Virus record (IMG/VR): IMGVR_UViG_2541047122_000024
DNA length: 4,078 nucleotides
Direction: 5' to 3' (one strand)
Origin: a virus
Lineage: Duplodnaviria > Heunggongvirae > Uroviricota > Caudoviricetes
Position 1 is the first letter of the stretch. Each line of letters opens with the position of its first letter. Below, piece after piece: positions 1 through 3,000 of the stretch. A program made the position numbers.

Positions 1-3000
1 CTCACGGATTACGGCGTCAATTTTTTCTTCCATCCGTTTATAGTCAGGAAGAAGTCGTTTCAGTGGTGCGGGGATGTCCTGGCAATATGCTTCTGTTGCA
101 TCATGCATTAAAGCTTCAAAAGCAAATTCCTGTGGCACCAGCTGGCTGCAAAGCACCGCATGTTGGGCGACACTGTAGAAGTGTGAAAGATGTCCTGCAA
201 AGCGACAGATATTTGAAAGGGAAACCGCGATATCGTTAATAACGATGTCGTCTTTATTTATCCTGTCATAATAAAAATGCTTCCCGGAAAAAGTTTTAAT
301 AAATGACATTTTGTTCTCCACGTATATGCGCTGCACCGCGCTGAATTCGGGTAAAAGGAAGCCCTCACCGTCCGGCGATTATTGAGTCAATTACATTTCC
401 ATAAATGCCCCCGTAGGGGCGGTTAGTTTCTCCACAAAACAGAGAAGAACACCTGCGGTGGCAGCCGCCCGGATGGATTGGGTTATGAGCCCGTCGTCCG
501 GTGATGCTCTTCTCTGTTTTGTAAAAAGGACGGTACCAGCCGGAAGCAAGGGTACAAGCTGGTACCGCTAAGACTACACACAGCATAAAGTTGTGGTGCC
601 GGGTGCCTCCCGGTGCCTGGCGAAGGTTGCACACCAGGCGGGTGGGTATCCACAGAAGGTCGACTGTCAGCCTCAACCTTAACCCGCGTGCGCTGAGCCG
701 CATTCACCACAACGCTAAGGATTCTCTCTGGTTGAAAATACTTAGCTGTTATGTGCCTGTCTTTTCACCACTTCAGGCTCGGTGGTATCCTTTTAAGCCC
801 GTATACATAAAAGGAAAATCAAATGACTTTTGATGAAAAAGAACTTGATAATGCAATTAATAAAATCATCGTAACGTCGCTCTTTTCCTGTCTCAGCGAC
901 ACTCAGCAAAAACAGTTCTACGAATCGGCTTTCAACATGATCGAGCGTTGTTGTTTCTGCGATGCCGACGAGTTACCTGAAAAAATCAGGAAACAGTTGG
1001 CTGATGCTCTTCGAGTGCGACTTTCTGACCAATTTTCTGAAATGTACTCTCCGAATTTGGACAAATAGAAAAAGGCCATTTCCATTCAGGGTCTGATGGA
1101 AAGACTTCAGCCTGTTCTAAAGCACGGCGTAAAGAGAACACAACTCCAGCCATAATCTGATGTTTCCCATTGGTCCAGCTATCGCCGCTCTGATCTACAG
1201 GGGCGGCTATGTCGTATGACCAAACGACTTCACAGTTATTGTTTAAAATCTGGACTTTCATTTCATACACCTGCTTTAACATGAGTGCCTAGTGGCACAA
1301 CATGACTCAACGAATCATCCTGGACTTCATATGCCCCAGGCGGCTACTTCGTGGGCGTCCTGCCTGTTCGTTTTTGACATTTACTGACTGCTTACGACAC
1401 ATGCACCGTGTTGCAACCAGATTTTGTTGTAATCCTGTAGTTGGTCTGGAATAAAAGATAAAATTAAATTGCGAGATATGCAAGTGGTATTTGCGAGATA
1501 TGCAAATTTATAGGTAATAAAAAGCCACCTTTCGGTGGCCGATGGATGGGATATTGAGGTTAATTATGTCTCTTAAGGGTTTGCGACTGACTGATTAAGA
1601 CCTTTCCAAAGACCATGAATCGGTGTTCGTTTTCGCTAGTAATTCCCCATTCACGGTAAATCTGGTTATCAGAAATCACCAGCAGTTTGTCAGGAATCAT
1701 TTGAAGTCTTTTAACGTATATTTTGTCATCAAAACCAAAGACATATATACCATCACCATCAAACTGATTGATGCTGACATCAACGAAGATGAGATCTCCT
1801 GGCTCAATGGTTGGACACATACTGTCCCCACGAACGTTGATAACTTTGATGTGATTGGCTGGTCGTCCGCCGAACATTGATACAGCATTATCAGTTCTGT
1901 ATTCGATGGCATGAATCACATCAATGACATCACCGCCCTGGATAAGGCCATTTCCCGCACTGGCACTGATATCCAGCATTTCAATACGGAACACATCCTT
2001 CACCTGCGCAACATCCTCATTATTACTGTTTTTATATACAGTATTACTTTTGTGGGCAGAGGTAAAGAGATCAGCAATATCAACACCTAAGCTCTTGGCA
2101 ATATTACTCAGTGTTTGTTCGGTAAATTGTTTTTGCTTACCCGTTTCTAAGCGCGAGATGTTCGCCGCATCTACTCCTATCGCTTCAGCGAGATCGGCGA
2201 TTTTCATGTTCTTCGCTTGGCGAAGTTGTCTGACTCGGTTTCCTATGTTCATGCGTTTATTACATTTCTTTATTGCGTGATAAGCAAATCAACTTGCGCA
2301 AAATAATTGCGTGAAATAACATGCATAACGCGCAATATTTGGAGGGCGTATGCAATCACCATTACGAAATGTGCGTAAGGCGCATGGTTTCACTTTGCAG
2401 CATGTTGCTGCGGGTGTTCAAGTCAATCCAGCGACGTTGAGTCGTATTGAGAGGCTGGAGCAGATTCCATCTATCGAGCTTGCAGAACGTTTAGCCAATT
2501 TTTTTAAGGGTGAAGTCAGCGAAATGCAGATTCTTTATCCGGCACGTTTTCAATCTAGCCAAAACCAGAATGGGTTTAAACCACAGGAACAGGAGGTGAA
2601 CCGTGGGTAAGCATCACTGGAAAGTAGAAAAACAGCCTGAGTGGTACGTGAAAGCTGTCAGAAAAACTATCGCAGCGTTGCCGGGGGGGTACGCTGAAGC
2701 TGCTGACTGGCTGGATGTAACAGAGAACGCATTATTTAACCGCCTTCGTGCCGATGGCGATCAGATTTTCCCGCTGGGATGGGCAATGATTTTGCAACGT
2801 GCTGGTGGAACTCACTTCATTGCTGACGCTGTGGCGCAGTCTGCAAATGGCGTCTTTGTGTCTCTTCCTGATGTCGAGGATGTGGACAACGCCGATATCA
2901 ACCAACGCCTGCTGGAGGTCATTGAACAGATCGGCAGTTATTCAAAACAGATTCGTTCAGCAATTGAAGACGGTGTAGTGGAACCGCATGAGAAGACAGC

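Follow-up and report, generated by a model that had tools for sequence, protein, structure and literature searches.

The canonical STnc100 RNA (Rfam RF02076) is encoded 75 nt downstream of stx2B and overlaps the Hfq-bound small RNA (sRNA) known as EcOnc27 or sRNA103 (PMC12370729, PMC12711010). The RNAs PasD1 and PasD2 have been validated on Northern blots, depend upon Hfq for their stability and have many partners in RIL-seq experiments, in which interacting RNAs are ligated and sequenced (PMC8550237); a 2026 preprint describes PasD and STnc100 as structurally related (bioRxiv 10.64898/2026.05.13.724894). Here we describe a divergent member of this family in a 4,078-nucleotide stretch of DNA from a tailed phage (IMG/VR record IMGVR_UViG_2541047122_000024), which as a whole is called the window below. 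The window corresponds to the immunity region of an SfV/ST64B/e14-type lambdoid prophage and is 100% identical to E. coli O157:H7-type chromosomes, save for insertion sequence (IS) insertions in the genomes. An earlier note on this DNA had singled out a GC-rich, densely palindromic block at 365-790, lying between divergent genes, as a candidate structured non-coding RNA or protein-binding element. Of 5426 complete E. coli genomes, 2787 carry the block.

The STnc100-family core and its fold

The search of Rfam gave one meaningful match, to STnc100, at 743-521 on the minus strand (43.0 bits, E-value=3.6e-7), and it covers the full length of the model (1-206). The same sub-threshold match was found in phages SfV (39.5 bits), phiES15 (40.6 bits) and ST64B (35.1 bits), and also in 118970_sal3. 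Another copy of the window subtype scored 34.7 bits, and the canonical copies in the same set pass the Rfam cut-off at 55-102 bits. We then have to correct the earlier note, which could match the block to no RNA family: it does match one, though below the cut-off. With our own covariance model, built from 56 family cores of which none has the window's subtype of helix P2, positions 588-714 (minus strand) scored 71.5 bits over the full length of the model (1-125; E-value about 8e-18). Because this score stands beside a sub-threshold one in Rfam, we conclude that the window core is a genuine but divergent member of the STnc100 family which Rfam-based annotation misses, and its identity as such is highly probable. 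The core includes an exact 21-mer, ACCGGGAGGCACCCGGCACCA, which occurs in at least 120 loci across the Enterobacteriaceae, often in two or three tandem copies. In Superficieibacter two or three STnc100 genes follow each other about 250 nt apart, each of them above the Rfam cut-off (locus L037 of our set, 6323-7018; also L036, L048 and L074). Other Rfam families gave chance-level matches only, that to mir-5880 coming from iteron repeats (3800-3875), and no tRNA or transfer-messenger RNA was found.

From 127 unique copies a shared plan could be drawn. P1 (GUGGUG/CACCAC) closes the domain and leads through an AAU junction to the P2 hairpin with its UNAGCG loop; there follow a short P3 around a variable insert, the P4 hairpin and an invariant P5 hairpin (CCGGG-AGGCA-CCCGG), and the segment just after P2/P3 forms a pseudoknot with the loop of P4. 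In the window this plan is represented by the following features.

713-590, minus strand: core, with five helices and the pseudoknot
705-713, minus strand: 5' strand of P1, GUUGUGGUG, pairing with 590-598; AAU junction at 704-702
686-701, minus strand: P2 hairpin, GCGGC-UCAGC-G-A-CGC, the subtype version of the family's CCCCC-UNNGC-GG-N-GGGG
639-686, minus strand: P3, CGGGU (686-682) with ACCCG (643-639), enclosing the variable insert and pseudoknot strand A
680-674 with 629-623, minus strand: pseudoknot of 7 bp, strand A (AAGGUUG) with strand A' (CAACCUU)
615-639, minus strand: P4 hairpin, GCCUGG (639-634) with CCAGGC (620-615), its loop holding strand A'
590-614, minus strand: invariant 21-mer (614-594) and 3' strand of P1 (598-590)
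613-599, minus strand: P5 hairpin, inside the 21-mer
714-746, minus strand: leader hairpin 5' of the core (746-734 with 726-714)

Every helix, the pseudoknot included, covaries. In a model-based alignment of 137 copies, 89.5% of cells are paired as against 75.8% after shuffling and 38-50% in slid controls, and the covariation score of 0.380 (shuffled, 0.141) was equalled by none of 500 shuffles. The pseudoknot had been left out of the model and hence had no influence on the alignment; taken alone it is 76% paired (shuffled, 59%; slid controls, 16-48%), with a covariation score of 0.505 versus 0.254. In a separate permutation test the observed complementarity was reached in 0 of 10,000 permutations, and 73 distinct A/A' helix sequences are represented. 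RNAalifold, applied to 85 non-redundant copies, recovered P1, P2, P4 and P5 with many double substitutions. The outer pair of P1 is GC in 101 copies, AU in 16, GU in 8 and CG in 3, and one pair of P3 is GC in 65, AU in 23, CG in 18 and UA in 7; between subtypes the pairs of P2 change from C-G to G-C or U-A, and the loop is kept. The family gains by this a tested five-helix model with a pseudoknot, which the consensus structure in Rfam does not have.

The palindromic nature of the block is also evident without reference to the family. Its GC content is 0.58-0.66 across 401-700, compared with 0.32-0.47 in the flanks, and every repeat listed in the earlier note was found again in its stated place: an inverted repeat at 434-458/498-522 (25 nt, 84% complementary, with a perfect 15-mer inside), another at 531-540/558-567 (10 of 10 complementary), CCGGG/CCCGG at 599-613, GCCTGG/CCAGGC at 615-620/634-639, a GC hairpin at 406-421, and direct repeats consisting of three GGTGCC, the pair 630-651/769-790 and two copies of TTCACCAC. 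The GGTGCC repeats arise incidentally from three helices that adjoin each other (P1, P5 and P4). The stem density is real and strand-biased, since the minus-strand RNA of 400-750 folds with -154.1 kcal/mol against -116.5 +/- 5.7 for shuffled sequences (z=-6.65, 0 of 100 shuffles equal) and the plus strand folds less well (z=-3.53). The suspicion that so many stems are not due to chance was thus well placed, as was the suggestion that the block encodes a structured non-coding RNA, which might be on the minus strand and belong to the leftward early transcript: the helices of that strand covary among more than 130 homologues, and the terminator described below makes sense on that strand only.

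Compared with canonical STnc100 (RF02076; EcOnc27, sRNA103), the window copy has the same five-helix core, P1 with its AAU junction, P2 loop, P4, P5 and identical 21-mer, the same succession of linker and intrinsic terminator, and likewise a prophage location. It differs in the P2 stem, which is GCG/CGC in the window and CCCC/GGGG in the canonical RNA, and in a longer P3. Whereas canonical genes belong to the late region (downstream of stx2B, or Q-holin), the window copy is early-left, next to the repressor; it is without the family promoter, and has a long hairpin, called module A below, on its 3' side. Other copies in our set lie between Q antiterminator genes and holin genes.

Linker, terminator and flanking modules

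The core is followed and preceded by further conserved parts, which are listed here from the linker leftward and then for the right edge.

569-589, minus strand: single-stranded linker of 21 nt, UUUAUGCUGUGUGUAGUCUUA, a candidate seed region
523-568, minus strand: intrinsic terminator, with an 11-bp stem (568-558/540-530), a 17-nt loop, and CC plus U5 (527-523)
434-522, minus strand: long hairpin of module A, with about 25 bp, rising to about 30 bp on extension to 424-530
407-433, minus strand: conserved GGAGAAAC (433-426), then the GC hairpin (420-407)
365-406, minus strand: yfdQ-yfdR intergenic spacer, or 5' untranslated region (UTR) of yfdR, outside the RNA element according to the alignment with SfV (locus L001)
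746-792, plus strand: module C, putative sigma-70-type promoter of an 81-amino-acid (aa) gene
762-791, plus strand: elements of module C, namely TTTTCA (762-767), 18 nt and TGgTATCCT (783-791), with a ribosome-binding site (RBS) at 811-816 and ATG at 823

The linker is conserved in ST64B, phiES15 and phiNP despite diverged flanks, and in phiNP the domain upstream of it has diverged beyond recognition. The terminator stem reads GUCGGCGUC/GACGCCGAC in ST64B and GCCCGC/GCGGGC in phiES15, in the same place but with another sequence and with a U run after each, and this comparison shows compensatory change in the predicted stem. Across the family, 80 of 123 copies have a terminator, the linker before it having a median length of 30 nt and the predicted RNAs a median of 177 nt. 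As a crude test for core and terminator folds that exclude each other, minimum-energy folds were calculated for these 80 full-length RNAs; 31 contained both P1 and the terminator, 32 P1 only, 11 the terminator only and 6 neither.

The consensus fold of module A reaches about 30 bp, and at its apex a three-way junction carries two hairpins, one invariant (492-480) and one covarying (468-455; GCGG/CCGC versus GCUG/CAGC). The module is 94% identical in mEp460, cdtI and Stx2c phages, with compensatory changes in ST64B and phiNP, and in intact phages this region lies just before the RBS of yfdP. A duplex of such length is the usual substrate of RNase III. Where a near-perfect duplex of about 20 bp or more is expected of a substrate, module A has 25-nt arms, 84% complementary and with the perfect 15-mer, and because of its overall length (25-30 bp) we regard it as a candidate RNase III processing site.

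Module C is conserved in Klebsiella, Salmonella and Cronobacter phages and at a chromosomal locus, always with the plus-strand RBS and ATG next to it; its hexamers are weak but conserved, and it probably serves as the promoter of the plus-strand 81-aa gene. On the opposite strand AAGACA-N17-TATTTT (762-735) would be a possible promoter, but it is unconserved in the Klebsiella phage, where the spacing is different, and we have rejected it. In 118970_sal3 (Salmonella) and phiNP (Citrobacter) a sequence resembling the T-arm of tRNA, CUGGUUCGAUUCCAG, occurs between the module C promoter and the RNA core (L005, about 2880-2900; L008, about 2865-2885).

A search of phage genomes revealed that these modules are conserved separately. 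Identity to window 409-571 is 94% in mEp460, cdtI and many Stx2c phages; for 570-729 it is 77-88% in ST64B, As1 and phiES15, and for 746-792 it is 96% in Klebsiella phages. The earlier note had treated 365-790 as one block; as an RNA region it holds, as a single element it does not, being a mosaic. Its left edge can also be accounted for. Window 1-420 corresponds to 1789-2208 of the SfV locus (L001) and window 409-1375 to 3501-4467. SfV has two similar GC hairpins 1.3 kb apart, after yfdQ (2197-2210) and before yfdP (3499-3512), and the window has a single hybrid copy, GCCCCUACGGGGGC (420 to 407, minus strand); the alignment indicates that yfdP and yfdQ were lost from the window in a 1.3-kb deletion by recombination between the hairpins. 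Positions 365-406 are therefore only the yfdQ-yfdR spacer, adjoined to the block by that deletion. In intact relatives the long hairpin and the GC hairpin are in the 5' UTR of yfdP; in the window they are fused to the yfdR leader. The sequence of the GC hairpin differs in every phage, and its pairing is always kept.

Proposed function and rival explanations

Taken as a whole, function included, the block is best explained as a non-coding stretch of the early-left operon of the prophage, read on the minus strand in the direction of transcription from the early-left promoter (pL), and we favour this with moderate confidence. It would contain the gene for a structured RNA of about 190 nt, made up of the 5' domain (713 to 590), the linker (589 to 569) and the Rho-independent terminator (568 to 523). 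The RNA would end at the terminator and accumulate as an Hfq-associated, trans-acting sRNA, like EcOnc27 and PasD; its compact 5' domain would protect it or recruit a partner, and the linker would act as the pairing region for targets. The terminator would double as a tL-type barrier, such that transcription from pL would proceed to yfdR, xis and int only by read-through or antitermination, and the long duplex would be an RNase III-type processing site parting the sRNA from the downstream mRNA. The trans-acting mechanism itself, which is proposed by analogy, is more tentative, and we would put it slightly short of an even chance.

Several observations weigh against this proposal. The STnc100 score of 43 bits is lower than the Rfam gathering threshold of 47 bits. 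The terminator has a U tract of only five residues, placed after two C, and an unusually long loop of 17 nt. A search for targets of the linker within the window gave no convincing one; of the two pairings seen there, one, an antisense match, was trivial, and the other, an antisense site in ymfL, was meaningless. The minus-strand promoter of the family, a TAAAAT-like signal at -13 to -8 and a weak TTGAC at -36 to -31 with the start at P1, is absent from the window, which has AATCCT and GCTAAG at those positions. Transcription of the window copy therefore probably starts at pL or at some weak, unrecognised promoter, and the RNA may be only part of a pL read-through transcript. Lastly, many copies of the family are found directly in 5' UTRs without a terminator (those of a KdgM-type porin, a MarR-type regulator, a lipoprotein and yfdP), which points to a role in cis for the conserved domain.

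This last observation leads to the main rival, which we consider unlikely, albeit less so than the others: the conserved domain would be a cis-acting 5' leader which, like a riboswitch or put, binds a ligand, a protein or RNA polymerase and controls the terminator or RBS that follows, with the small RNAs of the relatives as terminated by-products. The family promoter signals do place the start of transcription at P1. No terminator is detectable in 43 of the 123 copies, 25 of which have an RBS and an open reading frame (ORF) within 200 nt, and the other 80 have the terminator followed by genes such as holins, the usual layout of riboswitches. The loops and junctions are extremely conserved, the 21-mer being exact across genera, and the fold is a compact one with a pseudoknot. 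At 17 loci in several genera the domain occurs in the 5' UTR of KdgM-family porins, and in 7 of them a terminator-like hairpin precedes the porin gene. Copies in the 5' UTRs of KdgM porins and MarR regulators pass the Rfam cut-off, some of them without a terminator (L040 1298-1491, L017 4759-4860 and 15 more), and so the STnc100 family is not only one of stand-alone sRNAs. Against a leader, however, stands the lack of any shared function downstream, where KdgM porin, holins of three families, a MarR regulator, a lipoprotein and yfdP are found. Moreover, the linker that leads to the terminator (median 30 nt) is free of overlap with the domain, HK022 put is not similar in sequence, and the terminators of the relatives must be efficient, because these accumulate as abundant, Hfq-stabilised RNAs (PMC8550237).

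Since one and the same domain stands at the head of transcription units for porins, regulators and lysis, the question of cis action nevertheless arises. If it does act in cis, the window copy would control the entry of transcription from pL into the yfdP-yfdR-xis-int genes. The broader proposition, by which the STnc100 domain is a cis sensor or polymerase-modifying leader governing early-left, late, porin and regulator units across the Enterobacteriaceae, appears to us a shade less likely again. An origin as the leader of K-12 nanC-nanM-nanS was considered because canonical STnc100 precedes the phage nanS and other copies precede KdgM/NanC-type porins, but upstream of nanC our model gave no match, even when run without filters.

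It is improbable that the block is a mere cluster of terminators and mRNA hairpins where the early-left operon begins, releasing an RNA without a function of its own. The terminator and further hairpins do lie between pL and yfdR-xis-int, the window copy has no promoter of its own, and the copy in K-12 e14, with two mutations in the invariant hairpin, appears to be decaying. A plain terminator, however, needs no covarying, pseudoknotted domain of about 125 nt with a 21-mer identical across genera, and the same domain is found elsewhere with its own promoter and in tandem arrays.

More remote is an action of the block as DNA, be it as a site of recombination, as an array to which proteins bind or as a mobile palindromic element. 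The modules do recombine independently of each other among phages, and the region is densely palindromic, but the helices tolerate G-U pairs, as fits RNA, the fold is markedly stronger on one strand, the U run of the terminator exists on the minus strand only, and neither terminal inverted repeats nor target duplications were seen. The recombination or binding site that the earlier note had offered as its alternative thus survives only in the 407-420 hairpin, as the joint of a past deletion.

The question of coding arises from existing annotation. The NCBI pipeline, in a genome that is 100% identical, labels 391-710 (minus strand) a "frameshifted hypothetical protein" pseudogene, and ymfH (b1142) of the e14 element in K-12 MG1655 (1,201,069-1,201,380; L134 5570-5881, L132 2478-2789), a homologue of the block, is annotated as a protein of 103 aa, with no non-coding RNA annotated there. 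The K-12 region is 91% identical to the block, has the same place between the ymfI/ymfJ pair and the excision genes, and scores 55 bits with our covariance model. It differs by a 1-nt deletion and a G-to-A change in the P5 hairpin, within the invariant 21-mer. YmfH aligns to three window frames in turn, and one of the frame changes falls at this deletion; since the 21-mer is otherwise invariant, the K-12 ORF is a derived state. The gene is listed in an intE-xisE-ymfH operon and, with other e14 genes, in the YmfT iModulon (PMC12132413), and the literature on ymfH and on the sRNAs of ST64B gave nothing specific beyond this membership. In the family no reading frame is conserved, none being open in more than 35% of the 127 cores, and the spacing of the helices is not a multiple of three. 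The ORFs of the block had no match in Pfam, and the PHROG matches, from overlapping ORF calls, fall on both strands, one PHROG family being an ORF antisense over yfdP. The translations which the earlier note dismissed as nonsense are rightly so described, and in place of homology that preserves a frame without covariation we found covariation without a conserved frame. That the block is a decayed, ymfH-like gene, as the two annotations and a 112-aa ORF open at 365-703 (minus strand) might suggest, is the least probable of all these explanations and hardly credible, given that YmfH spans three window frames, that no frame or codon-like spacing is kept, that database matches are absent or on both strands, and that substitutions in the helices are compensatory.

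Setting in the prophage and comparison with known systems

The sRNA-like element is surrounded in the window by the following genes and sites.

2252-1560, minus strand: cI-like repressor gene
2350-2610, rightward: cro-like gene
2603-3154, rightward: ymfL
1540-1523: terminator of the repressor gene
1470-1484 and 1491-1505: two operator-like repeats, TTGCGAGATATGCAA, read directly in the sequence
1282-986, minus strand: 98-aa ORF (PHROG 3195), analogue of K-12 ymfJ
823-1068, plus strand: 81-aa ORF (PHROG 3311), analogue of K-12 ymfI, with a strong RBS and a putative conserved promoter upstream
309-1, minus strand: yfdR

From the position of the operator-like repeats at 1470-1505, pL would fire leftward, on the minus strand, and leftward transcription would meet in turn the 98-aa ORF (1282 to 986), the block and yfdR (309 to 1). 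In related phages, too, the block region has the repressor on one side and the first conserved early-left genes (yfdP/sb37, yfdQ and yfdR) on the other, and it is either unannotated or has conflicting small ORF calls. Repeats of the operator-like form TTGCG-N5-TGCAA are present on both sides of the repressor gene, two at OL and related sites at OR (2290-2345). The 81-aa ORF on the plus strand converges upon the 98-aa ORF on the minus strand with an overlap of 83 nt, and the NCBI pipeline annotates only the latter.

Three further observations concern other parts of the immunity region. Just downstream of pL, an element at 1300-1377 (minus strand, 62-78 nt) is near-invariant in 49 phage records from Escherichia, Salmonella, Shigella, Yersinia, Klebsiella, Pectobacterium and Providencia, and is unannotated in all of them. 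One of its stems covaries (CCUGG/CCAGG, CCGG/CCGG, CCCGG/CCGGG); it has no Rfam match and could be aligned neither with HK022 nor with the annotated putL-like RNA of HK639, the latter having been compared with this element only. We regard it as a candidate antitermination site of the early operon. Four iteron-like direct repeats (TCTGACCCGTCAAAA/TCTGACGCATCAAAA) at 3800-3875, inside an O-like replication gene (3499-3981), probably represent the phage origin. In SfV, ST64B and an Stx2c phage, isrK and a C4 antisense RNA (the P1/P7-type immunity RNA) lie to the right of ymfL (L001 6464-6652, L003 5732-5920 and L004 5563-5751); no element of the isrK/C4 type was found in the window.

The element is, in sum, a mis-annotated and widespread variant of the STnc100 family. 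In E. coli the block is either without annotation or called a protein, as with K-12 ymfH and the frameshifted pseudogene of NCBI, and pipelines which rely on Rfam miss the subtype. A family of prophage sRNAs associated with virulence is thereby extended from the late region to an early-left operon near the immunity genes. The e14 copy of K-12, though mutated, provides a tractable system.

PasD1 and PasD2 of enteropathogenic E. coli are, like the window RNA, encoded by prophages and ended by a terminator, and are relatives of STnc100 by literature description only; their genes differ in being near Q and lpxR, in the late region. The put RNAs of HK022 and HK639 resemble the block as structured RNAs which open early operons in phages without an N protein and which have terminators after them. 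In contrast, put is about 70 nt long, with two stems and no pseudoknot, and is next to pL, whereas the block is about 730 nt from the operators; put reads through, and the relatives of the block terminate efficiently. Homology to HK022 put was rejected, as there was no blastn match to the HK022 immunity region, no motif was shared and our model was silent in HK022. With the early-left region of lambda, where tL terminators are accompanied by RNase III sites in the N leader and in sib, there is no sequence relationship, and RNase III cleavage in the window is predicted from the 25-30-bp duplex only. The arrangement is nonetheless the same in both, a terminator and a long duplex in a leftward operon, upstream of the recombination, xis and int genes.

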